A stretch of 41,776 nt of DNA, from contig JAYWFX010000005.1 in the NCBI GenBank assembly GCA_043778575.1, positions 1 through 41,776 of the forward strand. The letters are read 5' to 3'. The notes under the pieces were generated by a model. The model did no database searches, was not told the origin of the DNA, and saw nothing but the letters and a program-made list of their open reading frames with translations. This document shows, in pieces, positions 11,500 through 33,241 of this stretch. Positions within the stretch are counted from its first letter, which is position 1; each line of letters opens with the position of its first letter. The position numbers and the translations under genes are program-made. Source of the DNA: a bacterium (lineage in GTDB: Bacteria > Patescibacteriota > JACMRA01).

Positions 11500-12963
11500 T
11501 TATTTGTTTGCAAGAAAAGGACCAGTGAACTCAAGAACAGAGACTGATGTGGCTGGAAGAGAAAAAGGCGAAGTATATTGAGGTGTTATTGATTTGCTCA
11601 CTATAGTGTTGCCTGCCAACGTTAGTTGTTTAAATCCAATGTTTGTATTATTTGTCATCTTGTTGATAGTCATATCCTTTCTGATAGTCGATTGATTAAC
11701 CAACACGATTGATCGTTTGGTGTTGTCTTTTGAAACCACTGCTAGTGCAAAAATATCTGGATCGTTGGTTTGTGTGCTAATTATGTTTCCCTCTGGAAGA
11801 TCACTAAGCATGCTCCACACTTGTCCTGCTGGACGAATTTGGTAAGTTGTCGGATTCATTTTCCCGAAATTAATGTCAACATCTGTCCATGCTGCCACGT
11901 TTGAAGCTCCGTTTTGAAGTGCAGAAATAACAGTAAGAGCGTCAAATACAGCACCTTTTTGGTTTGCCATTCTTGGATCATTTGCTTCCCATGAAATATT
12001 AAATTCGTTGAGATGAATCGGAACGTTTATATTTTTTTCAATTAGGGCTGATTTCAATGATGAAGTTGACCAAAATGGATACATCGTTGCTCTATAAAAA
12101 ATATCCGTGTCAGTGTCTGTTTTGCTCCCACTAATATAAATGTGATAGCTCAAAAAATCAAGTGTCTTTGGTGATTTCTCCTTTGCTACTTCTGTTAAAA
12201 ATTCTTTCACTCCATCCATCCTCTCAGTTCTTGCCAGTGATGGCCCACCGATAACTAGGTTTGGTTGAATTTGCTTCATACCTTTGACAACTTGATTGTA
12301 CAGCTTTCCCATCTCTGTCATTTGTCGAGGTAGTCCATTGTCCTCTAGATTTACTGAGTAATTAAAATCACGCTCGTTAAGAATCTCAAAAGTTTTAATG
12401 TTGAGTTGTTCTTCTTGGTTGATAATCTTGACCAAGTCTTGGGAAAATTTAGTAAAGTTCTCATATTCAGTTTGATCCAAAATAGTCGAAACCACTGTAC
12501 CAGAAGAATTTACAAATGACTTGCGTTTCATCCAAGCTGGTGCGTCGGTTAGGGTGATGCTGAATTCAGAAGTAATACCCTGTGCCCTCCAATTCCTAAC
12601 CATGTCTGCAAATTGACGGATTTTTGCTCTATCCCAAGATTTTGTAGAGTTATTTGCCCAAGCTCTCCAGTTGGTTGGTGCATCCCCTTGGATAGAGTCA
12701 TGAAAACGAATAGTGCCTGGATTTAATCGTTTAATGCTTTGTATATATTTAGGATCATTTCCCCAGTAAATAGTCATTGCACCTTGACCATTTTGACTAA
12801 AGGTTTGTTTGGTAATTGGATATTTTACACTTGTCCAATCAGCGTATAAATTTGGAACATATCCAGCCGAAGCATATTGATAGTTGAATAAACTTAGCAT
12901 CACTGAAAATAGTGTCAGACCTATTATGGAGAGGATAGTAATTTTTTTATGAGAGAATTGCAT
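11500..12963 (-). CDS. Secreted or membrane-anchored clan GH-A (GH39-like) glycoside hydrolase
   Basis: An N-terminal hydrophobic anchor or signal is present (ITILSIIGLTLFSVMLSLF). FEILNERDF is a candidate acid/base NE. FLSYHIY is present. IHLNEFNISW is a candidate nucleophile E. A beta-rich C-terminal domain follows. Confidence 0.55.
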   Translation of the reverse strand: MQFSHKKITILSIIGLTLFSVMLSLFNYQYASAGYVPNLYADWTSVKYPITKQTFSQNGQGAMTIYWGNDPKYIQSIKRLNPGTIRFHDSIQGDAPTNWRAWANNSTKSWDRAKIRQFADMVRNWRAQGITSEFSITLTDAPAWMKRKSFVNSSGTVVSTILDQTEYENFTKFSQDLVKIINQEEQLNIKTFEILNERDFNYSVNLEDNGLPRQMTEMGKLYNQVVKGMKQIQPNLVIGGPSLARTERMDGVKEFLTEVAKEKSPKTLDFLSYHIYISGSKTDTDTDIFYRATMYPFWSTSSLKSALIEKNINVPIHLNEFNISWEANDPRMANQKGAVFDALTVISALQNGASNVAAWTDVDINFGKMNPTTYQIRPAGQVWSMLSDLPEGNIISTQTNDPDIFALAVVSKDNTKRSIVLVNQSTIRKDMTINKMTNNTNIGFKQLTLAGNTIVSKSITPQYTSPFSLPATSVSVLEFTGPFLANK

Positions 12964-15419: not shown

Positions 15420-15442
15420 GACCATCATCGTTTGAAATAGGC

Positions 15443-16024
15443 TTATAGCATGACCATTGACGGTGTGATAACTACATTGTCTATCTTGCAGCCTAAACTT
15501 ACTATGTGTTTAACTGTTGGGTGGTTGTCTTCGTTGTGCTGATTTAACGCATTCATCATAATCGGATCAAACTCATCGCCGATATTTGGCTGTATTACCT
15601 CATAACCTTGTGTAGCTAAATCACTTTTTATTTTGGTAAAGCTGGTGCTAAGAGTAGATATAAACGCAAGTACTTTTTCATCTTGAGTATCTGGAGCAAA
15701 GCTAAAGGCTAAATTAAGTGTGTTTAAGAAATCTAACACCGGCCCAAGCGTTATTTTTTTTATAGTTTTGCGAGTCTGTTGGAGATCTAGTGAGTGTTGA
15801 TTGGCTTGATTTTTTAGATCTGCTGCATAACGTTTTGCTGTATTCTCCCACTCTTTTACAGATTCTTCTAGTTGTATTATCGTGTCATTAGTTGGTGTTT
15901 CAAACACATCACCTGCTTTCATGTTCTCAGGGGTTTTTTCAGCAGTTGCGTGTATTTTGTCGATCACGCTTTGAATTTCTTCTGTATTAAACTCTTCACT
16001 GGTTTCAGGTCTATGCTGTGACAT
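15443..16024 (-). CDS. grpE: Nucleotide exchange factor GrpE
   Basis: An acidic N-terminus and a long helix are present (RYAADLKNQANQHSLDLQQTRK...VLDFLNTLNLAF). The C-terminal beta domain is FDPIMMNALNQ...VKHIVSLGCKIDNVVITPSMV. Confidence 0.8.
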   Translation of the reverse strand: MSQHRPETSEEFNTEEIQSVIDKIHATAEKTPENMKAGDVFETPTNDTIIQLEESVKEWENTAKRYAADLKNQANQHSLDLQQTRKTIKKITLGPVLDFLNTLNLAFSFAPDTQDEKVLAFISTLSTSFTKIKSDLATQGYEVIQPNIGDEFDPIMMNALNQHNEDNHPTVKHIVSLGCKIDNVVITPSMVML

Positions 16025-16198
16025 ATTAGTTGGGTTATATTAAGTTAGGTTAATTAAAAAATTCAATAATAAAAAAAGCCTCTGTTATATGAGACCTATT
16101 TCAATAGTGAATAACTGATTAATAAAATGAAAGATTTGATATGGTCTCAGGTTTTGTTTTTTAACTTTGTGATTTCTAAATAAAAATATAATTTTTAG

Positions 16199-16273
16199 TG
16201 GAGCGGGATAAGGGAATCGAACCCTTCTCATCAGCTTGGAAAGCTGAGGTAATAACCACTATACAAATCCCGC
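16199..16273 (-). tRNA. tRNA-Gly (anticodon UCC), CCA encoded
   Basis: The reverse complement GCGGGAT..TCAGC-TTTCCAA-GCTGA..AAGGG-TTCGATT-CCCTT-ATCCCGC-T-CCA folds as a cloverleaf with U73. Confidence 0.93.
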
Positions 16274-16274
16274 A

Positions 16275-16361
16275 TGGTCCGCAGTCTTGGATTTGAACCA
16301 AGGTAGGGAAAATCCCGACAGATTTACAGTCTGCTGCCATTGACCGCTCGGCCAACTGCGG
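16275..16361 (-). tRNA. tRNA-Tyr (anticodon GUA), class II long variable arm, CCA encoded
   Basis: The reverse complement is CCGCAGT-TG-GCC..GGC, with anticodon stem GCAGA/TCTGT and loop CTGTAAA. It has a long variable arm (CGGGATTTTCCC), T arm CTTGG-TTCAAAT-CCAAG, and acceptor ACTGCGG-A-CCA. Confidence 0.9.
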
Positions 16362-16514
16362 ATACACTAACCAATTCAATACATAGACCTATTTTTGTCA
16401 ATATTCTGTCTTTCGTTCAGAGATTTTTTTTAGAAAAGTGCTAAGCCTAATCAAACTTACTTGACATTCTCAAAAAACTCACACTTACCTAAAATATAAC
16501 ATTTTGATAATACT

Positions 16515-17438: not shown

Positions 17439-19199
17439 ATGCCACGTTTTATTAAATATTTTGCTTGCTTAATTTTATGTATAGCCTATCTGTCTATCGG
17501 ACTATATAATGTTGGTCATGTTGGTCTAACTAATGACGAGATTGCACATATTGGAGCAATACAGAGCTATACCCAAGGAGATGGACTGAATCCAGAGCAC
17601 CCTATCTTTATCAAGACAATTGCCGCGACGGTAGTGAAATTAAGGTTTCCACTACTAACGGGACAGAGTACAGATCAGTGGGGTCGAGGTGGTGAGATTC
17701 TCTTTAACGGGCAATACTCTCCTGTTGATATTATTGCTACTATTCGGACTGTTTTTTTGCTTACCAATATGGTTTTTCTGGTATGGATATATGTTTATGT
17801 GGTTTTCTTTAGAGAAATAAGCTGGAAAATGGGTTTGATAGCTGGAATCATATTTGTCTTTTCACCAAGCCTTATCAGTCACAATTATTTGGTTACTTTT
17901 GATGTGAGCGGTGCTATTTGGCTTTTGATGGCTACACTGAGCGTATATTTCTTTTTTAAAAATCTACACAAAGAGTACATAACCACTTTCAGATTTAAAG
18001 GTCAGTTTTTATTGGTTGGATTGTTAGTTTGTGCTGCTTGGAATACTAAATTTAGTAATATTGTGAGTGTTGTTCCCCTCCTTGTTTTGACTACGACCAG
18101 TACAATATATTTTTTCACCAAGCGGGACTTCACCAAGCTTAAATGGGTTATCCAGTTTAAAGCCTATATTGTTAGTTTGATGATTTTTAGTATTTATTTT
18201 CTGTACCGTTATAGTTTTGGATCTGTGGGAATATCTAGTGATGAACAAAATATTGCTATCATAAAGCCACTAGTTGGTGTCATTCCAAAGGAATTTATTC
18301 ACTATATTCATGGTTTAAACTATATTCTCCATCGAACCAGTGATGGGCATTTGAATTTTTTTGGCGAACAATTCACCGCAACTCGATTTCCATGGTTTAT
18401 TGCTCGGGTATTTTGGTTCAAAGAAAACCCAGTGTTATCTGTATTGGTCGGTTCTGGGACTATATATGGACTGTATAAACTGATTAAAAACAAAACCTAT
18501 AAAAGCTATATTTCGAATTTCCAGCGATACCATTTGTCATGGTTTGTGTTGTCCGTACCACTATTATACACAGTTGTCAGTTTCAATAGTGAGCTTACGA
18601 TAGGATTTAGGCATTTTTATGCAGTTCTTGTGTTTGTTTATGTTGGTGCCATTTTATTTGTCGGACATTTGTTTGATCACAAAAAATACATAGCTCAAAT
18701 GGTGCTTGCTGTGTACGTAGTATTTGGTTTACTCAGCATCTCTCAGAATATTTCATACGTAAATGTTTTGTGGATGCAACCAAAATACTCCTTAGCCAAC
18801 GACTCGACACTTTATTGGTCACAGGAGCAAAGCGGTGCACTGCAGTTTTTACTAGAGAAAGGTGTCACGAAATATGAAAATGATGATCAAGTGACATTTG
18901 CCGTGTGGACATCTCAGTTTTTTACACCTTTAAAAGTCAATGAGGAGCTAGCACTACTAACAAACACACAACCTAATCAATGGAAAACCTATACACGAAA
19001 CTTTGATCCAACCAAACAAAAGATTTCAGAAATGAGGGAAAAATACACAGTGATCGACATTCATTTTATACAAAAGATTGTGGGATTAAAAAAAGAAAAT
19101 GAAATAGCCGAGGAGAACTGGAAATATATTCAAAATAACAAACCAATATACACTAAAAACGATGTGATTTGGATCTATGAAAAACAAACTAGTTTTTGA
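17439..19199 (+). CDS. GT-C fold membrane glycosyltransferase (ArnT/PMT-like, GT39/GT83-type)
   Basis: The protein is 586 aa and polytopic, with many hydrophobic helices. The first extracytoplasmic loop carries LTNDEIAH (a DE motif). The C-terminal ~140 aa form a soluble domain. Confidence 0.6.
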   Translation: MPRFIKYFACLILCIAYLSIGLYNVGHVGLTNDEIAHIGAIQSYTQGDGLNPEHPIFIKTIAATVVKLRFPLLTGQSTDQWGRGGEILFNGQYSPVDIIATIRTVFLLTNMVFLVWIYVYVVFFREISWKMGLIAGIIFVFSPSLISHNYLVTFDVSGAIWLLMATLSVYFFFKNLHKEYITTFRFKGQFLLVGLLVCAAWNTKFSNIVSVVPLLVLTTTSTIYFFTKRDFTKLKWVIQFKAYIVSLMIFSIYFLYRYSFGSVGISSDEQNIAIIKPLVGVIPKEFIHYIHGLNYILHRTSDGHLNFFGEQFTATRFPWFIARVFWFKENPVLSVLVGSGTIYGLYKLIKNKTYKSYISNFQRYHLSWFVLSVPLLYTVVSFNSELTIGFRHFYAVLVFVYVGAILFVGHLFDHKKYIAQMVLAVYVVFGLLSISQNISYVNVLWMQPKYSLANDSTLYWSQEQSGALQFLLEKGVTKYENDDQVTFAVWTSQFFTPLKVNEELALLTNTQPNQWKTYTRNFDPTKQKISEMREKYTVIDIHFIQKIVGLKKENEIAEENWKYIQNNKPIYTKNDVIWIYEKQTSF

Positions 19200-19962
19200 G
19201 ACCGATACCTCTATCCAGTAGATATAGATTTAGTCCTAATAATGCTCCTGTGAAACCAACCAAGACAACGAGACTCACAACTACATTGATATCTGAAAAT
19301 CCGTAAAATCCATACCGAAAACCATCTACCATATATATGATGGGGTTTAGTTTACTAATATTTTGCCAAACAGGTGGTAGTTCTTTGATCGAGTAAAATA
19401 CACCACCTAAATATGTGAGAGGGGTGAGTACAAACGTAGGAAATATCGACACGTCATCAAACTTTTTAGCAAAAATGCCATTGGTGAGCCCTCCTAGAGC
19501 AAACACTATAGCAGTCAATGTGATAAACACCAGTAATATTCCTAGATTATAGACTTCAATCTTTGGGTTAAAAAAAAGAGAGACGAGAAGCACACTGCCG
19601 CCAACTATTATACCTCGTAGTGCACCACCAATTACATAACCACTGATAATTGTCATGTTTGAAACCGGTGACACCATGAGCTCTTCGATGTTTCGCTGGA
19701 ATTTTGAGCCAAAAAACGAGCTTACTACATTGCTAAAACTGTTTGTGATGACTGCGAGCATAACCAAACCCGGAACGAGAAAAGCAATATAACTAACTCC
19801 ATTTATAGCCGCTACTTGTTTACCAACAAAATTACCAAAAATCAAGAAATAGAGTGACGTAGTTATCACTGAAGGTAAAATTGTCTGAGACCAAATTCTA
19901 AGAAAACGAGTAATTTCTTTGTTTACGATTGTCTGAAAGGCTACTAATTGTGAAGATTCCAT
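19189..19962 (-). CDS. ABC-2 type exporter permease (TagG/Wzm-like), no adjacent ATPase
   Basis: The protein is 257 aa with six predicted TM helices and an ABC-2 type pattern (...EELMVSPVSNMTIISGYVIGGALRG...). No ATPase gene lies on either side. Confidence 0.7.
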   Translation of the reverse strand: MESSQLVAFQTIVNKEITRFLRIWSQTILPSVITTSLYFLIFGNFVGKQVAAINGVSYIAFLVPGLVMLAVITNSFSNVVSSFFGSKFQRNIEELMVSPVSNMTIISGYVIGGALRGIIVGGSVLLVSLFFNPKIEVYNLGILLVFITLTAIVFALGGLTNGIFAKKFDDVSIFPTFVLTPLTYLGGVFYSIKELPPVWQNISKLNPIIYMVDGFRYGFYGFSDINVVVSLVVLVGFTGALLGLNLYLLDRGIGLKN

Positions 19963-20002
19963 ATATATTTAAGTTGCGTTTGCTGTTTAATTTTGTCAAA
20001 GT

Positions 20003-20031
20003 TTGACATGGTATCTGGAATTGGGTATGAA
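20003..20031 (+). promoter_or_regulatory. Sigma70-type promoter for trpS (TTGACA-17 nt-TATGAA)
   Basis: TTGACA is at 20003-20008, followed by a 17-nt spacer and TATGAA at 20026-20031. The -10 element ends 7 nt before the ATG at 20039, which is leaderless geometry. Confidence 0.45.
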
Positions 20032-20038
20032 ATTAGTT

Positions 20039-21058
20039 ATGAGTACGATTATCACAGGAATCAAAGCAAATAGTGATCTGCATTTAGGAAATTATTTTGG
20101 GGCAATTATGCCGTTTGTATCAATGACCAAAAGAGTGACACAGACTGATGATTTGTATATCTTTGTTCCTGATTTACACTCCTTTACTATACCCATAGAC
20201 CATTTTGCATTTTACCAAAAGATTCAAAACAATATCAGACTATATTTAGCGTGTGGAGTGGAAGCTCAAAAGTCGAATGTTCATATCTTTCGCCAAAGTC
20301 ATGTATCTGCTCATAGTGAGCTTGCTTGGATCTTATCATGTTTTAGTAGTGTAGGGGAGATATCTGGGCAAATTCAATTCAAGGAAAAAGCTAAAGCCCA
20401 AGAGAGTGCAAGTGTGGGACTTTTTACATATCCTTTATTGATGGCGGCTGATATTCTACTTTATGGAGCTGAATATGTTCCGTTGGGAGCTGATCAACAA
20501 CAACACCTAGAACTCTGCCGGGATGTGGCTACACGTATGAACCATAGATTTGGACAAGACCTTTTTGTTTTGCCTAAAAAGTGGTCAGATCAGCTAAACT
20601 ATTTCGGTACCGAACAGCCAGTAAAGATACGAAGTTTATCAACTCCAGACAAAAAGATGAGTAAATCCGAAAATGATCCCAAAGGAACCATAACATTGTT
20701 TGACACACCAAAAGACGCTATAAAAAAGATTATGTCAGCGAATACGGATAGTTTTGAGAATATACGATGGGACTGGGAGAATCAGCCAGGTATTACCAAT
20801 TTACTTCAATTAGATATGTTGTTTTCAGGAAAAACTATTGAGCAAACAAAAAAAACATGGGAAGGGCAGACACAATATGGAGCGTTAAAAAAATCTGTGG
20901 CCAGTGGTGCCGAGTTGTTTTTAATTGATATTCAAGAAAAACTCGAGAACATTAGCCAAACGCAAATCGATCAAATTTTAGATAAAGGTGAGCTCAGTGC
21001 TAATATTAAATCAAAACAAACACTCAATCACATTCATTTAGTATTAGGATTAAAATAG
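20039..21058 (+). CDS. trpS: Tryptophanyl-tRNA synthetase
   Basis: ITGIKANSDLHLGNYFGAI (HIGH-type), GADQQQHLELCRDVA, and KMSKS. Alternative starts are the ATG at 20027 and the TTG at 20003. Confidence 0.93.
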   Translation: MSTIITGIKANSDLHLGNYFGAIMPFVSMTKRVTQTDDLYIFVPDLHSFTIPIDHFAFYQKIQNNIRLYLACGVEAQKSNVHIFRQSHVSAHSELAWILSCFSSVGEISGQIQFKEKAKAQESASVGLFTYPLLMAADILLYGAEYVPLGADQQQHLELCRDVATRMNHRFGQDLFVLPKKWSDQLNYFGTEQPVKIRSLSTPDKKMSKSENDPKGTITLFDTPKDAIKKIMSANTDSFENIRWDWENQPGITNLLQLDMLFSGKTIEQTKKTWEGQTQYGALKKSVASGAELFLIDIQEKLENISQTQIDQILDKGELSANIKSKQTLNHIHLVLGLK

Positions 21059-21119
21059 TGTTGGGATTGAAAAAGTAAGTTATTGACTAATATATAATTG
21101 CGTGTGACACTCAAATGGT

Positions 21120-22748
21120 ATGTCATCAAACAAAAAGACAAAAGTACTGTGTATATTTGACGGATTTGGTTTAGCTGTAGACTCAGAAAACAATTGCATT
21201 TCGAGAGCAAAAATGCCTCATTTTAGAAAACTTCTTTCAGAGTATCAGTGGAGTGTATTCAATGCTGACGGTGACAGTGTAGGGCAAGAGGCTGGACTAG
21301 TTGGAAATAGCGAAGTTGGTCATATGAATATTGGTGGTCTAAAACTTGTTCCGCAGCTGAGTTATCAAATTACTAAAAGTAGCGAAAATAACTTTGATTT
21401 AGATAAGCAAGTATCTCCTGATCAGCTGTTTGATCCCAAATATTTTTTAAAAAACACATTCTCAAAGCCAGAAAAAAATAAAACAATTCATCTGATCGGT
21501 CTCTTTTCGACTGGCACCATTCACTCAGATCTCAGACATTGGGCAGCGGCAATAGTATCTGCTGGTCAATCTGGGGCTGAAAATATCGTATTACACATCA
21601 TTTCAGATGGACGAGACAGCGACAAAAAATCATTGGTAGCTACTTGGGATGGATTTATGAAAACATACTCAGAAAAAATTAAACCATTTGAAGATAAAAT
21701 ACTAGTAGGATCTATAGGTGGTAGATTTTACTCAATGGATAGAGATAAAAACCTAGATAGGGTAACAAAAGGAATTTCATCAATGTTTTACAATAGTGTC
21801 TCAGATGTTTTTGAGAATATATCTATTTATGATGTAGAAAGTAAAAGTTATAGCAGTGAGGTGTTTGATGAAAATATACAACCTGTTTCCATAACTCAGA
21901 ATTTGATTGTGCCAAACGATACTGTTTGGTTTTTGAATTTTCGAACAGACAGAATGAAACAAATGATTAGCATGATTTGCGATCGTAATACAGAATATGG
22001 GTTGAATCTAACGATGATCAGTATGAATGACTACTGTGTGGGGCATGAAATTTATTTAAATGAAAAACTCGAAACAACTCGATCAAAAGATGCTGTGGGG
22101 TACTTCCCAATTTTTAAAAATCAGCCTGTACAAAACACTTTGGCTCAGACTATTTCAAAGGAGGGGAAAACGCAACTGCATATTGCAGAAACAGAAAAAT
22201 TTAACCACGTAACATATTTCTTTAATGGTGGTCAGGATAAAAAATGGACTGGTGAAGACTGGGTAGTAATCCCCTCAAACAAAGTCCAAAGCCACGCCGA
22301 AAAACCAGAGATGAAAGCAAAAGAGGTGACAGACTATATCTTGGAACACGGACTCGGGAAATATGATTATATTATAGTCAACTATGCTAATCCTGACATG
22401 GTGGGACACACAGGCGATATTGGAGCTGGCGTGACATCTATGGAGTTTTTAGATACCCAGTTAGGTAGGCTTTTGGAAGTAATCAATGGTGAAGAATATT
22501 CGATGATACTCATTGCAGATCATGGAAATATGGAAATGGTTGGCGGATACACAAAAGATAGTTATGAGCTCACTGACACCGAGCACAACGCAAATCCTGT
22601 GCCATGTATTGTTATCGATTCGAACTACAAAACACTAAACTTAGATCGTGATTACTCAGTAGAGTGGCTAACCCATAAGGAGATCGAGGAAAAAAAGAAT
22701 ACTCAACAAGCACTTTGGACAGCAGGAAAACTAATTTTAGAGCTGTAA
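21120..22748 (+). CDS. gpmI: 2,3-bisphosphoglycerate-independent phosphoglycerate mutase
   Basis: VLCIFDGFGLA, NSEVGHMNIGGLK, ISDGRDS, ETEKFNHVTYFFNGG, NYANPDMVGHTGD, and ADHGN. Confidence 0.93.
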   Translation: MSSNKKTKVLCIFDGFGLAVDSENNCISRAKMPHFRKLLSEYQWSVFNADGDSVGQEAGLVGNSEVGHMNIGGLKLVPQLSYQITKSSENNFDLDKQVSPDQLFDPKYFLKNTFSKPEKNKTIHLIGLFSTGTIHSDLRHWAAAIVSAGQSGAENIVLHIISDGRDSDKKSLVATWDGFMKTYSEKIKPFEDKILVGSIGGRFYSMDRDKNLDRVTKGISSMFYNSVSDVFENISIYDVESKSYSSEVFDENIQPVSITQNLIVPNDTVWFLNFRTDRMKQMISMICDRNTEYGLNLTMISMNDYCVGHEIYLNEKLETTRSKDAVGYFPIFKNQPVQNTLAQTISKEGKTQLHIAETEKFNHVTYFFNGGQDKKWTGEDWVVIPSNKVQSHAEKPEMKAKEVTDYILEHGLGKYDYIIVNYANPDMVGHTGDIGAGVTSMEFLDTQLGRLLEVINGEEYSMILIADHGNMEMVGGYTKDSYELTDTEHNANPVPCIVIDSNYKTLNLDRDYSVEWLTHKEIEEKKNTQQALWTAGKLILEL

Positions 22749-23375
22749 TTCACCTAAATCTAAATACATTTGTACGTCGTCGACATATTCACCTCTAAAT
22801 AAAAATCCTTTGGGTATTCTGCCACATTCTTTGAATCCGAGTTTGTGGTAGAGTTTTAGACCAGCTGTATTTGTCCCTATGAAGTTAAGTTGAATTTGCT
22901 GTATGTGCTTCAGTTTCTTTTCCGCTTCCTTGATAACTATTTTACTAGCTAAAAACCCTAATCCGAAACCTCTGAAATCTTTTTGAATCGCAATTCCAAA
23001 ATTTGCTACATGAGATGTAAGCCTTAAATTTTTATTTGAGTTAATGATGCTCACATTACCTATTAACTCATCATTATGCATTGCCAATAGATAGACCGCA
23101 TTACCTTTTTCCATATCTACAAATATATCTGCTAGCCAGTTCATTTCCTGTTCCCGAGTTATGACCTCGCCTGAATATGAGATAATTTTTTCTTCCGATA
23201 ATTGATTCATTAGTTTAGTCAGTCCTGTTAGATCAGACCACTTCGGATAACGAATGATTATTTGTTTATCATTTTTTAATTGGATTTGAGAGACTATTTC
23301 TCCAGGGTTAAAATTATTTGTCATAGCTAGACTGTGCTGATTTTTCTGGAAAATTGAAATGAGATTATTGAGCAT
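22737..23375 (-). CDS. GNAT family N-acetyltransferase
   Basis: IAIQKDFRGFGLGFLASKIV is the acetyl-CoA motif A (Q/RxxGxG/A). ...LYHKLGFKECG. The start is uncertain: TTG at 23402, ATG at 23375 or ATG at 23324. Confidence 0.8.
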   Translation of the reverse strand: MLNNLISIFQKNQHSLAMTNNFNPGEIVSQIQLKNDKQIIIRYPKWSDLTGLTKLMNQLSEEKIISYSGEVITREQEMNWLADIFVDMEKGNAVYLLAMHNDELIGNVSIINSNKNLRLTSHVANFGIAIQKDFRGFGLGFLASKIVIKEAEKKLKHIQQIQLNFIGTNTAGLKLYHKLGFKECGRIPKGFLFRGEYVDDVQMYLDLGELQL

Positions 23376-25758: not shown

Positions 25759-27456
25759 TTATTGATTTGCATCATTTGGGTTGACACGCCTTCGTGAATC
25801 AACTTGTTTTCCCTGCCTTGGGTTGTTTTGATTGTTCTGCTGATTGTTCTGTTGGTTGCTTTGATGATTATTTTGCTGGTTGTTTTGGTTGTTTGGCTGC
25901 ATTTTATTCATGATTTGATTGTTGTTTGTACTGCGACTGACGAGTGGGAGTTCGGCTAGTTTTGGTTTGACTCTACCGTCATCATGGACGAGACCATTTG
26001 ATTTTTGAAGCTCAAAGATTTCTTTTCTCATAAAATCTAGGCGAGTTAGAATACCCTCTTGTTTATATGTGTCACTACTAAATGCTGAAAATTGACTAGC
26101 AAGCTCGGCGATTCGAGTGCGAGAATCATTTCTAAAATTCCTGACATCTCGAGAATTGTACTCCAAATCCTCTTTGAGTTTATCAACCTGATCTCTGACT
26201 TCATCGATTTGCTCTGGTAGGCTAGATTGTGAGCGTGAACCATCGATCTGGGATCTAATTTCTGTGATTTCCTTGGCTTGACCAACTATTCGTGAGTTCA
26301 TTTCAAACATTTTTGACATGATGGAGTCATAATACGTGGAAATTGATTCAAAATTGATAACCACTTCCATGACTTTGTTCAAAAACTCACTTTGGTTCTG
26401 CTCGTATCTATCAAAAGCGTTTGCATACTCATCTTTCATCTTTGAATACTGCTTGTAAATGGCTTGGAGTTTTTCTTGGGTGACAGATTTTCGTGCATCT
26501 AGTGTGCCAGAGAAATTTTCGTACTGAGCCTCATCCATCTTTTTAGTCTGACCACTTGTTTGATTATTTGATTGATTGCTTTTCTGCTGATTCTGATTTG
26601 AGTTTTTTTGAGATTGGTTCTGGTTTTGCCCCTGTCCTTGGTTTGGATTCTGATTTTGCTTATTTGAGTTTTGCTGATTTTGTTTTGGCTTTCTCTCTTC
26701 ATTTTGGACTGGTGGTTTTGATGTAGGTTTTGGTGATTGAATTTGAACTGCTACTGGTTGGTCAAAGTCATCTGCTCCAAAACTAAACGAGTCGTCAGCT
26801 TGGACTTCTTCGTCTTTGCTTTCATCTAACAAACTGCTGGATGTAAATGGTGCATTTCCCATTTTTTGTAGTTCGTCGTGCTGTTCTGCTTCTTCTGCAA
26901 CTACCTCATCTTCTTCTACAAAATATGGATCATTTGCAACTTCTACCACAGCTGGTGATGGTTCGACCGCAGGTACCACTGTTTGTGGCTGCTGTACCTC
27001 GACACTATTGACTGCTACTGGCTGTGCAAAAGCTGATGCATCAAAAGTAGGCTCTGTGTGAGCTGGCTGTAAAACTGGTGCCGACTCTACTGGAGCTGCG
27101 AATGGGTTAGTAAAACTACTATCAGTATTATTTGGAACTGGTACTGGAGCGATTGGGATTGCAGGTGCGGTTGGCTGTGTCATAGCTGGTGACACGGATG
27201 GAGCTGGTTGTGCACTGATTCCACCGAGTGATTGTTCGACTGGTTGAGGCTCGGTAAATGCCTGTGGTACTGCAGTTTTTTGAGCGTCTTGCCACATTTG
27301 ATGTAATATACTAACGAGCTCTGACTCCTGTTCTGGGGTAGCGGTCTTGTGCCACTCTCTCCATTCAGTCTTTTCGGAGTCAGACAAAAAATATGCTGCT
27401 GTGATAGCCTCAACTGCATTTAATGGAAAGCCGTCTGGGTATGTGTTTGGTTGCAT
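25759..27456 (-). CDS. Hypothetical Q/N-rich, Pro/Ala-rich coiled-coil protein (565 aa), no signal peptide
   Basis: The ORF is long and open, with a small folded-looking N-terminal domain (aa 1-65) and a P/A/V-rich linker. An acidic FxF segment follows. Q/N tract 1 spans aa 251-303 (nt 26548-26706). A ~190-aa heptad-like helical region comes next. Q/N tract 2 spans aa 509-548 (nt 25813-25932). Confidence 0.75.
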   Translation of the reverse strand: MQPNTYPDGFPLNAVEAITAAYFLSDSEKTEWREWHKTATPEQESELVSILHQMWQDAQKTAVPQAFTEPQPVEQSLGGISAQPAPSVSPAMTQPTAPAIPIAPVPVPNNTDSSFTNPFAAPVESAPVLQPAHTEPTFDASAFAQPVAVNSVEVQQPQTVVPAVEPSPAVVEVANDPYFVEEDEVVAEEAEQHDELQKMGNAPFTSSSLLDESKDEEVQADDSFSFGADDFDQPVAVQIQSPKPTSKPPVQNEERKPKQNQQNSNKQNQNPNQGQGQNQNQSQKNSNQNQQKSNQSNNQTSGQTKKMDEAQYENFSGTLDARKSVTQEKLQAIYKQYSKMKDEYANAFDRYEQNQSEFLNKVMEVVINFESISTYYDSIMSKMFEMNSRIVGQAKEITEIRSQIDGSRSQSSLPEQIDEVRDQVDKLKEDLEYNSRDVRNFRNDSRTRIAELASQFSAFSSDTYKQEGILTRLDFMRKEIFELQKSNGLVHDDGRVKPKLAELPLVSRSTNNNQIMNKMQPNNQNNQQNNHQSNQQNNQQNNQNNPRQGKQVDSRRRVNPNDANQ

Positions 27457-27591
27457 ATTTATTTTTAGTTATTTTTATGAAAATATTTTAGATTTGTTTT
27501 TGCATTAAAATCGAATTGTTTGGATTATAGCACAGTAAAAAAACTTATGCAAATAAAATATGGATTTTTCCCAGAATTGAGTTTAGTTTTT

Positions 27592-27620
27592 TTGACTAGA
27601 CACTGTTTTTGGCATATATT
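27592..27620 (+). promoter_or_regulatory. Sigma70-type promoter for the giant hydrolase operon (TTGACT-17 nt-TATATT)
   Basis: TTGACT is at 27592-27597, followed by a 17-nt spacer and TATATT at 27615-27620. About 130 nt of A/C-rich, G-poor leader follow, up to the ATG at 27751. Confidence 0.55.
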
Positions 27621-27750
27621 CACGTGAATCAAGAACACCAAACCACAATTCAAAGACTAACTCTAGCACCAATCAAAACAAATACTTCAATTAAAGCTCA
27701 AGTTTGCACTCAAACCAAAACGACAAAACATATAATCTAAACTCAGCCAA

Positions 27751-30700
27751 ATGGCACTAATACACAACAAAAGATATGAAATCAAAAATGGGGAAAAGCG
27801 TTCTAGTGGTAATTCTAGGTCTAGTACTGGTTTCGGATCTGCACGAGGTGCCAACGAAATGAGCGAAGAGGACAAAGACGAACTACTAAACGATCCCTTG
27901 AACGATCCAAGAAAAGCAGTTTTTCAAGTAAACACATTAAACGGTGGGGTCAAACTGCCTTCACTCAAAAGTAAAAAAGGAAAAAAACAACTGAAAGAGG
28001 AGGATCCCACAATACAGCGAAAACGAGCGATATATAAAGCAGACTCAACTTTAATCTTAGACAAAAGAGAAGGGGAACTTCGAGCTGAAAAAGACTTTTA
28101 CCAAAAACTGGCTGATGGCACTGGAAACCCTCTCAGCGAGGAGGACACCCTGAAAACCGCAGGTAGAGTAGCCCAAATCGATAAAAAATTATCTAAAATC
28201 ACACAAGCTGAGGCTGTACTAGATGAGTCTAAGGTGGAGCGTGACAACAGATCCAGAGACACCGCATTGATAAACATGAGGTCTAGGCTGGTCGGAGTAG
28301 TAAATGCCCTAGAAATAGCAAAGAAAGAACTAGAAAATGAGATTGGTAAACAGATTAGAACTATTAGGGAGTTAAAATCTCAACTCAGCGAAGAGACAAA
28401 TATAAAAGCCAAAAACAGGATTCAAGCTAGAATTAACGCTGCGATCAATAGAAAGGCAGACATGGAGGAGGTGTACAGGCAGATTTGCGTAGCTGCTAAC
28501 CTAAAAAACCAAGCCCTCATCGATGGGTCTACTCTGGAGGCAACAATCGCCCAAGCAAAAGCCCGAGCACTAGAAATCAATCGAGAGATAGCCAGTACAT
28601 TTGATACCAGTTTAGAGGGTGATAGAAACAAACTCGAGGCGCTCATCGATAGCTCAGTCAAAACATTAGCCGATCTCTACACAAAAGCTCTACTGATACC
28701 GATCCCCCAGAATCTACCCCAAGCATCCCTAGAAACCAGAAAGGGGCTGAACAGTGCAAACAAATTCGCAGATGCCATCAAGGACACAATCAAGCGAAAC
28801 GTAGCCATCATCATAGCCCAGATGATGCTGGTGGTCATAACGGTAATATCTATCTTTGGTCTGATATACGCAATCTACTGTAAACCACTTCACCCCTTTG
28901 ATTATGCTCTGGATGCAGCCCAGTTTGCCGCAAATCCAGTAGGCGGGGTCATAGAAACGATTAGAAAAGGAGGGTACGAGTCGCCACTGAGAAAACTCAT
29001 GCAAAGCATAAAAGGCTGCAACGCAGGTCTATGCTCAACGAGCGGTGCAACGGCTACAGGAGATGGAAGCAAAGACACTGGCTCTGGCTCTGGTAGTAAG
29101 TGCCTTGCAGCAGGTAGAAGCGGGGAGGCAGCTAATCCTGAAATGCGAGCGCTGGCTAGGGCGTATAGTGAATTAGAGTCAGGGGGTAACTATACAATTG
29201 TAAATGAAGAGGATTGTTATGGGCGTTATCAATGGTGTTATTTCTCTAGGAACAATGAAGGAAATGCAGGGGCTTGGGGTTCGAGTGGTTTTACTAAATC
29301 GCCAAGAGAAGCAACATATGAGGAGCAAGATATTGCTTTTATTAAAGCATACAAGAGCCTATATCCTGCCTACTCAAACGGTGGAGATATATCTAAAGAA
29401 CTTGCTGCTGCTGGCACTGATACTGCAAAGCTCGTGCCAATATTAAACAATATGTGTAGCCAATGGTCAGTTGGCTGTGGTGCTGGTACTAAATACGAAG
29501 CTCAAGGAAATCAGAAAAGCCTTATTTCTAAATACGCAGCTGCTCTGGTCGAGGAAAAATCTGGAAAATGTGGTTCATCAACTGGAGCTCCAGATTTACA
29601 AAATGATAAAGTAAAAAATGCCTCGGTAGAAAATAAAAATCTATCAAACTACTCTTATTTGGAGAGCTTGTGGGGTGGTGTAGCTGTAGATGCATTTTCA
29701 ACTAGAGGCCCAGTGATAGATGAGAAGAAGAACCACATCGTGAGCCAAGAATTAAAAACTGCAATTACCTCAGGTAAACTTCAAACTGCTTTGAGTGGTC
29801 AATCAGATTTTCTTAAAGATGTAGATAATGGCTTAGACCCAGCGGTTGTAAATTTTTTGCTCAATTATGCGGCACCAAATGGAGCAGTTTTGACAGCACT
29901 CTCGACAGAAACACATAGATATAGGGTTGGAGATGTACCTGAGGGTGCTATCAGTAGGCATAGTTATGGTGAGGCCGCTGATTTTAACTTACAATATGAT
30001 ACTCCAACAGCTACCAAGTTGGTAAAAATGGTAAAAGATGCTCAGGCAAATGGTTTTAGTATTTCTCAGTGGGGTGCTGATACTGGCAATAAAGCCGTAA
30101 TGGATGCCGCTGGAATGCCGAATATACCATATACGCCAGATGGTGAGGGACATTTGCACTTGGTATTTGGAGCTGGTGGATCAGGTTCAAGCACTCCTTC
30201 ATCAGGAAATTGTCCGGGTGATCAGTGCGGAGGTGCAGCTTCGAGTCAACCTGCAAATGTTGATAAAACATTTTTGACTGAGCCAGCTGATAAGTTTCTG
30301 TTGAAGTCGCCAAAAGTCGCCATGATTCACTACACAGCGACTGGGGATAAGCTTTCAGGGAAGGAGCAAGCTGAAGCATTCAAAAAACTTGCACAAACGA
30401 GTGATTCATCTGGCTATGTTCATTATTTGATAGATAAAGACGGCACCAACTATCAGATTGTAGATGAAAAGTATTATACTGCTGGGGTAGGTGGAAAGTG
30501 GAGTGGTTTATTTGAAACAGGTGAAAGTAACAAACGAATTTCAGATCCTCAAAAAGAAAAGGAGAATGGTGTCAACTATCATGCTGTTCAATATGAGGTA
30601 CACTATACTCCACAGGATAGTCTTAATCCGTCAGAAACTATATCTGATGCCCAGCTTAAAAGTCTCGCATCGCTGATAACATCTTCAGGTTTTACAGCTG

Positions 30701-32034
30701 ATCAAGTGTATACTCACTGGGGTGTTTTGCCAGAGGGTAGGCATGATGCCGATGATTGGATCAGGATAGATGGGACAGTCACAAAGTCTCTCATAAATTT
30801 TGTAAAATATGCTGGTTGGGCTTCGGACGATGCAGGGGCAGAAAAAATTGGAAAAAAGATTCTATACAATAACACTACTAATGCTCTAAAAGTTTATGCT
30901 GATCCTCAAATAATCAATGAAAGATTTACCTCACCAAAGTCTATGCTTGAGGCATCTAAAGAAAAACTAGGTAGTGGTAAAACAGCTACTACTGAAGAAG
31001 GTGTCTCGAAATCAAGTCAATTTGCTCTCAACTCATTGTGGAATAGTATTAAAGTGGATGCACAATCTTCTGGTGTAAATGTCTCTGGGAAAGAACTTTT
31101 GAAAAAGATGGCGGATATAGTCGAGCGTCATGAGGGTTATGGCGCTGATCCAAACAATATTCCAACCAGCTTTAAGAATCCAGGCGATCTTCAGTATGAT
31201 GGTATAATCGCCAAAAAATTCCCAACCGCCACTAAAGATGCAAAAACTGGTTTCGCAAAATTTCAGAACTATGCAGATGGTCGAGCCGCTTTGGAGGATT
31301 ATCTAGTAGATATTTTAGTAAACACACCAGGCCCGTATCAGGGATCTAAAACTTTTGGAGATGTAATGGGTCATTATGCGCCGCCTAGCGAAAATGATAC
31401 TTCTAATTATATTAAGCAGTTTGCATCTCTTGGGATAACTGCAGATACGCCACTGAGTGAAATTAAAAGTAAATTAGGTGGTGTTACTTCGTCAGGTAGT
31501 GCTTCGTCACCGTCTCCTTCTGGAAGTGTGTGTTCTATTTTAGGAAGTACCTCACTTTTAGAAGTAGCAAAAAAATATGCTTCAGGAAAACCAGCTAGAG
31601 GAGTTTGCTTTAGTAAAGTTGCTGATTATATTGATGAGGTAGGGTTTGGAAAAATTGGAGGTAAAAGTCAACCTAATGTAGCTTCAACCATGAGTGCAGC
31701 TGGATTTTCTACAGGCGAAGCAAGAAATTTTGCAGAATTTTTAAATGCCAATGGAAATGCAGCAAAATATGGGATTAGAAACTTGTTGGATACAAATAAA
31801 AATATGAGTCCATATGATGCTCCTGCTGGTTCAATTGTGGTTGTTTCTGCAGGGTCACCTGGTACAAGCCACCCAACTGCGGGTGATATAACCGTACGAG
31901 GTACTACTTTTGCAGATGGAGTTCCCGCGTTTTATAATGATGGTGAGATGGGTTACAACGGTGCCGATAAGTGGAATGGAAGCACAGCTAAAAATGGTGT
32001 AGGTAAAGTATTGGGGATTTACGTTCCAATTTAA
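27751..32034 (+). CDS. Giant single-pass membrane protein with multiple peptidoglycan-hydrolase modules
   Basis: Residues 1-349 are basic and coiled-coil, and KDTIKRN precedes the TM helix, so the N-terminus is predicted cytoplasmic. The TM helix is aa 350-376, VAIIIAQMMLVVITVISIFGLIYAIYC. Residues ~455-545, YSELESGGNYTIVNEEDCYGRYQW, are lysozyme/transglycosylase-like. Residues ~690-806 carry SRHSYGEAADF (SxHxxGxAxD) plus GEGHLHL, the LAS/M15 zinc peptidase pattern. Residues ~852-1005 carry AMIHYTATG, VHYLIDKDGTNYQIV, VNYHAVQYEV and YTHWG...HDADDW, the Amidase_2 pattern. Residues ~1112-1215, VERHEGYG...FKNPGDLQYDG...GFAKFQNYADGRAALEDY, form an unassigned module. Residues ~1255-1427 carry RGVCFSKVADYI and GSIVVVSAGSPGTSHPTAGDITV, a CHAP/NlpC-like Cys/His pattern. 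Confidence 0.8.
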   Translation: MALIHNKRYEIKNGEKRSSGNSRSSTGFGSARGANEMSEEDKDELLNDPLNDPRKAVFQVNTLNGGVKLPSLKSKKGKKQLKEEDPTIQRKRAIYKADSTLILDKREGELRAEKDFYQKLADGTGNPLSEEDTLKTAGRVAQIDKKLSKITQAEAVLDESKVERDNRSRDTALINMRSRLVGVVNALEIAKKELENEIGKQIRTIRELKSQLSEETNIKAKNRIQARINAAINRKADMEEVYRQICVAANLKNQALIDGSTLEATIAQAKARALEINREIASTFDTSLEGDRNKLEALIDSSVKTLADLYTKALLIPIPQNLPQASLETRKGLNSANKFADAIKDTIKRNVAIIIAQMMLVVITVISIFGLIYAIYCKPLHPFDYALDAAQFAANPVGGVIETIRKGGYESPLRKLMQSIKGCNAGLCSTSGATATGDGSKDTGSGSGSKCLAAGRSGEAANPEMRALARAYSELESGGNYTIVNEEDCYGRYQWCYFSRNNEGNAGAWGSSGFTKSPREATYEEQDIAFIKAYKSLYPAYSNGGDISKELAAAGTDTAKLVPILNNMCSQWSVGCGAGTKYEAQGNQKSLISKYAAALVEEKSGKCGSSTGAPDLQNDKVKNASVENKNLSNYSYLESLWGGVAVDAFSTRGPVIDEKKNHIVSQELKTAITSGKLQTALSGQSDFLKDVDNGLDPAVVNFLLNYAAPNGAVLTALSTETHRYRVGDVPEGAISRHSYGEAADFNLQYDTPTATKLVKMVKDAQANGFSISQWGADTGNKAVMDAAGMPNIPYTPDGEGHLHLVFGAGGSGSSTPSSGNCPGDQCGGAASSQPANVDKTFLTEPADKFLLKSPKVAMIHYTATGDKLSGKEQAEAFKKLAQTSDSSGYVHYLIDKDGTNYQIVDEKYYTAGVGGKWSGLFETGESNKRISDPQKEKENGVNYHAVQYEVHYTPQDSLNPSETISDAQLKSLASLITSSGFTADQVYTHWGVLPEGRHDADDWIRIDGTVTKSLINFVKYAGWASDDAGAEKIGKKILYNNTTNALKVYADPQIINERFTSPKSMLEASKEKLGSGKTATTEEGVSKSSQFALNSLWNSIKVDAQSSGVNVSGKELLKKMADIVERHEGYGADPNNIPTSFKNPGDLQYDGIIAKKFPTATKDAKTGFAKFQNYADGRAALEDYLVDILVNTPGPYQGSKTFGDVMGHYAPPSENDTSNYIKQFASLGITADTPLSEIKSKLGGVTSSGSASSPSPSGSVCSILGSTSLLEVAKKYASGKPARGVCFSKVADYIDEVGFGKIGGKSQPNVASTMSAAGFSTGEARNFAEFLNANGNAAKYGIRNLLDTNKNMSPYDAPAGSIVVVSAGSPGTSHPTAGDITVRGTTFADGVPAFYNDGEMGYNGADKWNGSTAKNGVGKVLGIYVPI

Positions 32035-32039
32035 ATTTT

Positions 32040-32681
32040 ATGACTTTGAAAAAAATATATATAGTATTTGGAGTTTTGATTTTTTGTCTACTTATCTTGG
32101 TTGTTTCACTTTACATTCGTCTCACACAACAAAAAGAGAATTTATCAGAAAAAAAAGATTTAATTGTTAATCAAGTAATTCCTGATAGTGGTAAAGCAAA
32201 AAATCCAAATCTACAAACTGAAATAGCCCCTAACATAAATACAATACCACCAGAAACTAACGTGATAGATCAGACAGTGATTATTAAAAGTTTAATTAGT
32301 GATAATGTTTCAAAAGACATAAACGGCGTAAACACTAAGTTAAGGTACGGTTTTTTTTATAAAAATACTAAAAAATGGCTGAGTATCCAAACATTTAGCG
32401 ATGGCGGAAGATATTTATTTATCTCAGATGAGAATTTTGAAGGTATTGAGAGAATACCCATACTAATGGATTATTTCATAGATGCTGAGAATTTGACAAT
32501 ACTATCTGATAGTAAAGTTACGTTTTTTGCTAAAAAAGGAAATGGACTACTCAAACCACAGAAATTTATTTTAGACATGAGTTTGTATTTAGATAAAAAA
32601 GTAAACTATCTGAGTTTAGACGACGATGCTAATGTGTCTCAGCGTAGACCAACAGCTGCAGAGGTTGAATCAGCTCCTTAG
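32040..32681 (+). CDS. Hypothetical N-terminally membrane-anchored protein (213 aa), operon partner of the giant hydrolase
   Basis: It starts 5 nt after the stop of the giant gene. The TM helix is IYIVFGVLIFCLLILVVSLYI, followed by a Pro/Asn linker and a beta-rich ~130-aa ectodomain. I recognise no family. Confidence 0.6.
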   Translation: MTLKKIYIVFGVLIFCLLILVVSLYIRLTQQKENLSEKKDLIVNQVIPDSGKAKNPNLQTEIAPNINTIPPETNVIDQTVIIKSLISDNVSKDINGVNTKLRYGFFYKNTKKWLSIQTFSDGGRYLFISDENFEGIERIPILMDYFIDAENLTILSDSKVTFFAKKGNGLLKPQKFILDMSLYLDKKVNYLSLDDDANVSQRRPTAAEVESAP

Positions 32682-32701: not shown

Positions 32702-33241
32702 ATGACTCCAAATAAACACCTTATTTCTTTGATCTTGACTATCACTATGGTGTGTTTGCTGGTGCTGAGTATTGGTTTTGGGATTGATTATCAACGCGCT
32801 CATAGCCAGCAGGATGTGGATGTGATCCCTGAGGGCTACGATCTCGACAGTAGTCTAAAAAATCTCAGGTTTGATCAGCTCCTCAACGGTCTCAATAATA
32901 GCGTCGATAACTGCTCGTTGTTTTCAGGTAGTTTGTTGGTCAAATTTTCGGATGGCAGTTGTCTATTTGAGTTTTATGATCTTAGTGGATCTGACAAGAA
33001 TTTCTTGGAGTACCAAAACCCACAAACCAAAGATCTGGCAAAGACTGAGCAGAAACTCTTTTTTTTATCAAAGGAGAGTGGTCAATATGTGTATCTCAAT
33101 AGATCGAATCGAAACCTCACCACCATAACAAACGCCAAAGAAGTCTTTGAAAACGGGAAATCTATGATCGAGTTCACAGAGTCGGGTAGGAGGGTTCGAG
33201 GTGAGCCAATGCTGGTAAACATGAGAGAGGTGCAAATGTAA
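32702..33241 (+). CDS. Hypothetical N-terminally membrane-anchored protein (179 aa), third gene of the operon
   Basis: It starts 20 nt after the previous stop. The TM helix is LISLILTITMVCLLVLSIGFGI, followed by a ~140-aa ectodomain. I recognise no family. Confidence 0.6.
   Translation: MTPNKHLISLILTITMVCLLVLSIGFGIDYQRAHSQQDVDVIPEGYDLDSSLKNLRFDQLLNGLNNSVDNCSLFSGSLLVKFSDGSCLFEFYDLSGSDKNFLEYQNPQTKDLAKTEQKLFFLSKESGQYVYLNRSNRNLTTITNAKEVFENGKSMIEFTESGRRVRGEPMLVNMREVQM

Follow-up and report, generated by a model that had tools for sequence, protein, structure and literature searches.

The patescibacterial contig JAYWFX010000005.1 (GenBank assembly GCA_043778575.1; 41,776 nt, the whole of which is hereafter called the window) codes for a 1427-aa protein in which a single transmembrane (TM) helix is followed by five distinct modules directed at peptidoglycan (PG). 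In order along the chain, these are a probable GH23/Rpf-like glycosidase, a LAS zinc peptidase, an Amidase_2 domain, a putative Enc34-type glycosidase and a CHAP/NlpC-P60-like Cys domain, which flexible Gly/Ser/Cys-rich linkers would join into one array (Table 1). An earlier sequence-only reading had credited the protein with four to five lytic chemistries; the five modules hold up, but they amount to about three classes of bond, namely glycosidic, MurNAc-L-Ala amide and peptide bonds. Multidomain wall hydrolases as such are known already (PrgK, CwlT, Atl, phage lysins and tape-measure proteins). The novelty lies in a cellular family, restricted to the candidate phyla radiation (CPR), that combines a single TM helix with combinatorial arrays of up to five PG modules, conserved junctions and partner genes. 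We found no description of this architecture in the literature: the Vampirococcus paper, the giant-gene preprint and the paper on type IV secretion systems (T4SS) of the CPR go no further than hydrolases of the ordinary kind, or than VirB1 homologues to which M23 or LysM has been added. Two modules of the array are without a curated family. Whether the array targets a foreign wall at a contact zone is, in our judgment, an evenly balanced question.

The gene can be taken as real, since five contigs, which come from several samples, carry the same protein, 100% identical, and since 279 relatives emerged when 1.84 billion representative proteins were scanned exhaustively with HMMER. In a word-indexed database the whole protein retrieved a single homologue and the profile of module 1 none, and scans of the GTDB species genomes, with the protein and with an Amidase_2 profile, gave no relative. 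About 28 of the relatives are 900-3076 aa long, and nearly all of the full-length giants follow one plan: a pre-TM region of 250-1250 aa, a single TM helix and then two to five PG modules, with all hydrolase modules C-terminal to the helix in nearly every case. The pre-TM regions are lineage-specific and hold nothing recognisable, neither a domain common to the family nor a match in the PDB. The module pool of the family extends to VanY, M23 and S11/beta-lactamase-type domains that pass Pfam. The architecture had been called exceptional; with five module types the window protein is indeed the maximum among the 150 best matches, followed by five other arrays with four, but it is common for the larger arrays to have three to four types. 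The window protein (P0001) and its closest relative (P0002) have sharply different sets of modules, although the EF-G proteins of the two organisms are 90% identical: P0002 keeps the TM helix, module 1 (~66-70% identity) and module 4 (~45%), and replaces the other modules by different LAS and VanY modules. A linkage of the array to fusA was considered and rejected, as it holds in the closest relative alone and not at 77-80% EF-G identity.

All 15 motifs quoted in the sequence-only reading are present in the protein, one copy each (aa 474, 490, 735, 801, 859, 891, 943, 988, 998, 1124, 1143, 1167, 1177, 1284 and 1371). Searches with the whole protein and with each module against Pfam, NCBIfam, PADLOC and PDB sequences yielded Amidase_2 and a sub-threshold M15_4 match only; modules 1, 4 and 5 had no single-sequence Pfam match passing threshold and nothing among PDB sequences. 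Because single-sequence searches were weak, alignments were built for each module from the exhaustive HMMER search.

The membership of module 3 in Amidase_2, as proposed earlier, is solid. PF01510 covers aa 853-977 with 39.9 bits in the whole protein and 43.4 bits with the module alone, against a cut-off of 26, and PHROG amidase and endolysin families also match. The presumed metal ligands H860 and H989 do not vary among 12 family sequences, the Glu of QYE is nearly invariant, and D999 lies ten residues past H989, the same spacing as in AmpD.

Module 4, which the sequence-only reading had been unable to place, can now be assigned to the Enc34/PHA02564 family on the strength of profile matches. 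The PHROG family phrog_873 ('endolysin') matches it with an E-value of 7.9e-9, and the profile of its alignment (A2) matches PDB 7q47, the Enc34 endolysin, at E 9.5e-6 over about 92 columns and the phage protein Gp29 (9vvp) at E 1.3e-4; tape-measure, tail-injection transglycosylase and head PHROGs match as well. The entry 7q47 is the catalytic domain found in the endolysin of Hafnia phage Enc34 from the PHA02564 family, which is muralytic by experiment, all-helical and a relative of the lysozyme alpha-lobe, and for which the authors propose a glucosaminidase activity with Glu131, Trp79 and Tyr95 as the catalytic signature in Enc34 (PMC8943055). As counted from the profile alignment, Trp79 aligns with an invariant Tyr of 'YAPP' in module 4 and Tyr95 with the Tyr of 'NYIKQF'. 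Candidate catalytic acids in the module are E1128 (of HEG, invariant) and E1237 (E or D in all five sequences).

Module 2 is a divergent putative zinc peptidase of the LAS fold. It has the zinc motifs S-x-H-x-x-G-x-A-x-D and H-x-H (SRHSYGEAAD, aa 735; GHLH, aa 800-803); its alignment shows no variation in the D of AxD or in DGxGHxH, and five of six sequences have the motif His. Its fold is supported by an AlphaFold model of modules 1 and 2 together (core pLDDT, the predicted confidence, about 75-90), for which the top Foldseek match is MepA (1u10_C; E 0.025, prob 0.99, TM-score by target, TMt, 0.38). Peptidase_M15_4 scores 15-19.6 bits on the module (cut-off 25), and across the family four of the six sequences match M15_4 and two match M15_3, all below threshold (best E 1.5e-3). 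When compared by hhalign with the Pfam-validated VanY domains of the relatives, the module aligns in the zinc motif alone (28 columns, prob 2%). With the motifs and the MepA match set against this zinc-motif-only alignment, we regard module 2 as of the LAS fold but not VanY/M15B, so that of the earlier label, LAS/M15 peptidase, the first half stands and the second falls short of the M15_4 threshold.

Module 1 probably belongs to the lysozyme superfamily in its GH23/Rpf-like part. E476 (in ELESGGNY) is invariant in the alignment, as are four Cys, and is the candidate catalytic Glu; in Rpf it corresponds by alignment to the Glu of the 'CESGG' motif, at which RpfE is also weakly matched in a PDB profile search (E 0.39). 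PF06737 (Transglycosylas) matches two members of the module family (best E 7e-4, below the 27-bit cut-off; window copy E 0.47), and the module fails the SLT, Transglycosylas and Lysozyme_like profile thresholds. In the AlphaFold2 (AF2) model, with a core pLDDT of 80-90, about 40 of the top 50 Foldseek matches are GH23 lytic transglycosylases or GH23 chitinase, weak in themselves (E 0.14-2, prob up to 0.75). The lysozyme/lytic-transglycosylase-like character read from the sequence earlier is consistent with the invariant Glu and these weak structural matches, at the level of the fold and with no profile passing its threshold. We also considered modules 1 and 4 as duplicates of each other; they are unrelated in profile comparison.

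Module 5 is widespread: 129 such domains occur among the 150 best matches, 110 of them at the extreme C-terminus. Across 24 sequences a C, the D of GDI, an N, an M and a Y are invariant. The Cys, C1286 in the window copy, lies at the N-terminus of a helix in the AF2 model (pLDDT 91), and the window copy has H1374 too. The window copy has no Pfam match, CHAP is hit at E 0.076 in two of the 24 members, and the 24-sequence profile finds no PDB sequence. Foldseek against the PDB gives a best E of 0.75, which is not significant, with USP, the S. aureus CHAP amidase, P60 and a papain-like toxin on top; against BFVD it gives an unnamed phage protein (prob 0.99, TM-score by query, TMq, 0.52), followed by CHAP/C51/NlpC-P60/TIGR02594 lysins at prob 0.35-0.72. 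Since the His is not invariant and no CHAP/NlpC-P60 profile matches, we see module 5 as a divergent papain-fold domain rather than a CHAP member, a placement supported at the level of the fold; of the Cys and His on which the earlier CHAP/NlpC-P60-like reading drew, only the Cys holds up as invariant. A link to the cell wall is suggested by association, as the module is fused to VanY, M23, beta-lactamase/S11 and Amidase_2 domains in relatives. In an unrelated bacterium it follows a PAAR domain (PDB 4jiw, E 6e-13; PF05488) in a 284-aa protein (P0024, at 3821-4675 of locus L010), and would by analogy sit there where an antibacterial effector of a type VI secretion system (T6SS) sits; this fusion points to module 5 as an uncharacterised T6SS effector domain. 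Downstream of P0024 lies a 361-aa gene in the opposite orientation, and no immunity gene was recognised. Taking the modules together, at least three PG-hydrolase families are represented in the array, Amidase_2 by Pfam, module 4 by the Enc34 profile and module 2 by LAS fold and motifs, and the candidate catalytic residues are present in the window copy.

As had been noted earlier, the protein has one TM helix, the sole strongly hydrophobic segment. We infer an N-in/C-out topology from the net positive charge directly N-terminal of the helix, the position of the modules after the TM helix in nearly all full-length family members and the four invariant Cys of module 1, which fit an extracytoplasmic location. 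The N-terminal region aligns loosely with that of P0002 and has no Pfam match apart from a sub-threshold one to PF07996 (T4SS) in its coiled coil, which at 16-17 bits against a cut-off of 24.7 we take as coiled-coil noise. The juxtamembrane segment is found in P0014 as well as in P0002.

Table 1. Coordinates of the hydrolase array, its parts and its neighbours in the window (aa, residues of the 1427-aa protein).
Feature	Position	Strand	Remarks
565-aa Q/N-rich protein with C-terminal coiled coil	25759..27456	-	divergently transcribed, beside the hydrolase gene
Promoter-like site TTGACT-17-TATATT	27592..27620	+	consensus match in the 294-nt intergenic region 5' of the hydrolase gene
Hydrolase open reading frame (ORF)	27751..32034	+	ATG start, TAA stop, 1427 aa
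N-terminal region, aa 1-350	27751..28800	+	basic low-complexity, then coiled-coil; predicted cytoplasmic
TM helix, aa ~351-378	28801..28884	+	Kyte-Doolittle maximum 2.78; predicted signal-anchor
Juxtamembrane segment, aa 379-440	28885..29070	+	PLHPFDYALDAAQF...GYESPLRK, then Gly/Ser/Cys linker; conserved with P0002
Module 1, aa 441-625	29071..29625	+	probable lysozyme superfamily (GH23/Rpf-like); putative glycan-strand cleavage
Junction motif 1, aa 634-648	29650..29694	+	YSYLESLWGGVAVDA; in disordered linker
Module 2, aa 650-810	29698..30180	+	LAS-fold zinc metallopeptidase (predicted); SRHSYGEAAD ... DGEGHLH
Module 3, aa 840-1035	30268..30855	+	Amidase_2 (PGRP/T7-lysozyme/AmpD type), predicted N-acetylmuramoyl-L-alanine amidase
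Junction motif 2, aa 1090-1104	31018..31062	+	QFALNSLWNSIKVDA; before module 4
Module 4, aa 1108-1245	31072..31485	+	Enc34/PHA02564-type muralytic domain, lysozyme alpha-lobe-like; proposed glycosidase
Module 5, aa 1262-1427	31534..32031	+	divergent papain-fold (CHAP/C51/NlpC-P60-like) Cys domain, by predicted fold
Downstream gene 1, 213-aa bitopic (N-terminal TM)	32040..32681	+	starts 5 nt past the hydrolase stop; candidate partner/immunity
Downstream gene 2, 179-aa bitopic	32702..33241	+	member of a divergent family found after arrays elsewhere

Ahead of modules, the ectodomain carries a hydrophobic motif that ends in V-x-A, seen in the window protein as WGGVAVDA (aa 641-648, 29671-29694) and WNSIKVDA (aa 1097-1104, 31039-31062) and also present in P0002, P0003, P0005, P0008-P0017, P0044 and P0129. 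The pattern [FLMW]-G/x-G/x-[VI]-x-[VA]-x-A has 33 ectodomain matches in 22 proteins as against 3.0±1.6 in shuffles, and zero in the pre-TM regions; as the pattern was derived from the same family, this enrichment test is circular and its outcome inflated by relatedness. The motif is nonetheless a genuine conserved feature of the boundaries between modules. The linkers that carry it are left disordered by AlphaFold, its small-x-small end is reminiscent of the sites cut by signal peptidase I, and in two of the eight loci described below (L005 and L011) the arrays have Peptidase_S26 genes nearby. Processing, structural capping and recombination are all possible roles for it.

We inspected the surroundings of the arrays in eight loci, namely the window, L001 (the closest relative), L005-L007 and L011-L013. 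All eight lie among housekeeping genes, which in the window are those for EF-G, S7, SecY, Trp/Tyr-tRNA synthetase, iPGM, transketolase and GrpE, and in the relatives include DnaK, MurT, SecE/NusG, RsmH-type and tRNA synthetase genes. Phage genes are absent from all eight. No phage or T4SS gene was detected in the 41.8-kb window, where PADLOC also gave no match, in line with the earlier statement that no phage, conjugation or secretion genes flank the hydrolase; T4SS genes are likewise absent within 10 kb in six further loci, L011 being the sole exception. There, a signal peptidase I gene and then a TrwB/TraG-type gene (together 13857-16498) directly follow a 2959-aa array and its small partner gene. 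Extended synteny shows no prophage tail module in the eight loci and, of conjugation-type genes, this one coupling-protein gene near an array.

In seven of the eight loci, L013 being the exception, the array is followed on the same strand by one or two genes for small proteins that have a single N-terminal TM helix and no known domain; besides the window and L001, these genes are found in L005 (15812-17263), L006 (15791-16672), L007 (5993-7496), L011 (12884-13612) and L012 (16418-18011). Those of the window, L001 and L005-L007 form one very divergent family through transitive matches, the phmmer links running from win_dn179 to L007_dn259, L006_dn293 and L007_dn238 / L005_dn274, and from there to L005_dn206. 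The first downstream gene of the window has a weakly similar positional counterpart in L001. The small proteins are possibly regulators or immunity factors. On the other side of the hydrolase gene, the 565-aa protein is 51% identical to a 543-aa protein at the same position in L001 and has no Pfam, PHROG or PADLOC family. The promoter-like matches in the 294-nt intergenic region do not exceed in number what is expected from shuffled sequence, and no terminators were detected around the hydrolase operon. Two side observations concern the relatives' loci. In L012 a second giant ORF (18114-22853; 1579 aa, no Pfam match), with its own small downstream gene, comes after the first array, which suggests tandem paralogues. 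In L008 a heliorhodopsin gene (8599-9480) adjoins the EF-G gene on a 1.27-Mb contig of a Patescibacteria relative with 80% EF-G identity.

The nearest named relatives of the window's EF-G, at 74-77% identity, are from Patescibacteria, SR1, Gracilibacteria and Thermales bacteria, and one relative at 80% is on the 1.27-Mb contig just mentioned. These relatives place the host among the Patescibacteria (CPR), in keeping with the possibly episymbiotic, reduced bacterium envisaged by the sequence-only reading. Because some of the nearest phyla recode TGA, the genetic code was checked: TGA serves as a stop in the window, so that translation table 11 fits and code 25 (TGA = Gly; SR1, Gracilibacteria) is ruled out. 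The region 27000-32000, which contains the hydrolase gene, has a G+C of 0.41-0.43 as against 0.34-0.39 for most of the window, along with a strongly positive GC skew; the higher G+C may reflect a Gly/Ala/Ser-rich composition or a foreign origin of the modules. Elsewhere in the window we observed a 293-aa ORF (3614-4495, + strand) with GTP_EFTU as its sole domain, whose listed start overlaps the SecY gene on the opposite strand, followed in another frame by a 374-aa ORF without a Pfam match (4587-5711, + strand); the two may represent a translational GTPase that is unusual or split, or else result from a start that was called wrongly. The SecY protein itself (2110-3828, - strand; 572 aa) has the 306-position Pfam model spread across residues 69-554 and must therefore contain large insertions relative to a typical SecY. 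A 487-aa protein with a Glyco_hydro_39-like domain (11500-12963, - strand) is a further observation in this small-genome bacterium.

We propose that the hydrolase is a bitopic surface protein with ~350 cytoplasmic residues, disordered and then coiled-coil, one signal-anchor helix and an extracellular chain of ~1050 residues that would cleave from a fixed point on the cell surface. Modules 1 and 4 would cut glycan strands, module 3 the MurNAc-L-Ala amide and module 2, perhaps with module 5, peptide bonds. Together they might digest foreign PG, be it that of a host, prey or competitor, locally at the contact zone, and the small downstream proteins would be candidate regulators or self-protection factors. 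The activities of the individual modules, the target and the role of the neighbours are all meant conditionally here. A foreign target is favoured because modules 4 and 5 belong to the phage-lysin or effector type and not to the housekeeping type, because the module sets turn over fast among close relatives and because small partner genes accompany the arrays. All cultivated Patescibacteria are described as episymbionts (PMC11623550). An attack by the array on a host wall is plausible.

Several points weigh against this proposal. At the level of the modules, 1, 2 and 5 are below the Pfam gathering thresholds and the Foldseek E-values are all above 0.001; the catalytic Glu131 of Enc34 falls outside the stretch that aligns with module 4, and about a third of the 24 homologues have D, N, S or T in place of the His of SHPTAGD in module 5 (H1374). 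In PrgK, two of three predicted hydrolase domains are inactive in vitro (PMC11323569). As for the target, the protein is tethered to the producer's membrane, which makes the producer's own wall the nearest substrate, and the evidence fits foreign and self PG alike. What speaks for an immunity role of the downstream genes is where they lie and a weak homology. Finally, the TrwB/TraG-type (VirD4-like) coupling-protein gene in L011 is only about 2 kb downstream of the array.

It is this tethering to the producer's own membrane that makes the remodelling of its own wall the main rival, one that we consider possible, if on the unlikely side. The protein would then be a self-directed autolysin or remodelling complex for PG growth, daughter-cell separation, turnover and recycling, a super-sized Atl, with the coiled coil coupling it to the division or elongation machinery and the downstream proteins as regulators. 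The first module is only about 60-80 residues from the TM helix, the arrays occupy housekeeping contexts, in relatives beside DnaK, MurT, SecE/NusG or RsmH-type genes, and among the modules of relatives are DD-carboxypeptidase/beta-lactamase-type and VanY ones, kinds that are typical of wall maturation. Processing into separate enzymes, as in multi-domain autolysins such as Atl (PMC7679415), would also fit the junction motif. Against this, housekeeping autolysins are usually conserved, whereas here module sets differ at 90% EF-G identity; modules 4 and 5 are of the phage-lysin or T6SS-cargo type; and a cell without tight control would be endangered by five redundant lytic activities on a single tether.

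The L011 coupling protein speaks for a second rival, by which the array would be an accessory hydrolase of the VirB1/PrgK kind, encoded apart from the genes of its apparatus and opening local holes in the producer's wall, perhaps also in its partner's, for the assembly of a T4SS, type IV pilus or competence system. PrgK, with an anchor followed by LytM, SLT and CHAP domains, is the closest known architecture. Patescibacterial VirB1 homologues are mostly unlinked to virB4, 83 of them carry extra wall-related domains, and peptidase and lysozyme homologues beside virB4 are essential in S. epibionticum (PMC12102498). The PF07996 T4SS match would point the same way, but its score is far under the threshold and its position is within a coiled coil; the window and the 10-kb surroundings of six further arrays are free of T4SS genes, and long lineage-specific cytoplasmic regions with three to five modules exceed what channel assembly needs. 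We hold this to be improbable. That the protein was once a phage virion protein with lytic modules, of the tape-measure or ejection type, and has been domesticated or degraded, or that it belongs to a cryptic mobile element, is barely credible: a coiled coil, a hydrophobic segment and lytic domains do give a tape-measure-like layout, module 4 matches tape-measure, tail-injection and head PHROGs and Gp29, and the gene's G+C of 0.41-0.43 stands out from the window's typical 0.36-0.38, but neither the window nor the seven related loci, with their housekeeping neighbours, contain phage genes, there is no PADLOC match, and the family shows a single TM helix before an extracellular array, with conserved downstream genes of cellular type.

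Returning to digestion of a foreign wall, a bolder version of that proposal can be entertained, though we think it doubtful. Here the arrays would be Patescibacteria-specific, surface-tethered and shuffled 'lysin arrays' that serve as contact-dependent weapons or feeding tools on the host wall; the ...G-G-V-x-V-x-A junctions would be processing sites, possibly of a type I signal peptidase-like enzyme, or recombination joints, and the downstream bitopic proteins would confer cognate self-protection. If true, this would be a polymorphic toxin-immunity system without a secretion apparatus, in an episymbiont that is already touching its target. Little is known of the means by which the ultrasmall CPR/Patescibacteria episymbionts breach or feed on host envelopes, for which single hydrolases of the ordinary kind have been the candidates until now. 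The arrays offer concrete genes for the questions of host-wall attack, muropeptide harvesting or self-remodelling. They also provide three leads for enzymology, namely the new and confidently folded Cys domain of module 5, which is T6SS cargo as well, a cellular branch of the recently defined Enc34 family and a divergent LAS peptidase, which may interest the fields of PG enzymes and engineered lysins.

In terms of known systems, the array resembles several without coinciding with any of them. Phage tape-measure proteins and virion lysins share with it a coiled-coil N-terminus, a hydrophobic segment and C-terminal muralytic domains, along with the PHROG matches of module 4, but the arrays are in a chromosomal housekeeping context in all eight loci, with no phage structural genes. 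As in T6SS PAAR effectors and polymorphic toxins, C-terminal modules are variable, module 5 is C-terminal (in the PAAR protein as in 110 of the 129 proteins) and small genes lie downstream; unlike them, the window protein has no T6SS, Rhs, LXG or other trafficking domain and would be tethered, not injected. Enc34 ORF39 (PHA02564; 7q47) is homologous to module 4, has the NNPGN motif in common with it and is also membrane-tethered. It is, however, a single-domain phage lysis protein with a C-terminal TM helix, whereas module 4 is one of five in a cellular protein, aligns over about 90 residues and has an extra invariant Glu in its N-terminal 'HEG'. The Atl protein of Staphylococcus similarly joins an amidase and a glycosidase (glucosaminidase) in one polypeptide and is proteolytically processed between them. 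Atl is a conserved pair of enzymes that is secreted by a signal peptide and has wall-binding repeats, while the window protein is anchored by a TM helix, its five modules come without recognisable binding repeats, and shuffling of modules is seen among its relatives. Finally, PrgK of the E. faecalis plasmid pCF10, like TraG of pIP501 and CwlT of ICEBs1, parallels the window protein in a membrane anchor followed by extracellular metallopeptidase-type, lysozyme/SLT-type and CHAP-type domains that act locally. Conjugation hydrolases had been said to combine two activities; this needs correction, as PrgK has three predicted domains, of which one, the SLT domain, is active (PMC11323569). PrgK is encoded in a T4SS operon. 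The window protein, by contrast, has no T4SS neighbours and its domains match no LytM, SLT or CHAP Pfam model; it places five modules, Amidase_2 and Enc34-type ones among them, behind a 350-aa cytoplasmic N-terminal region.

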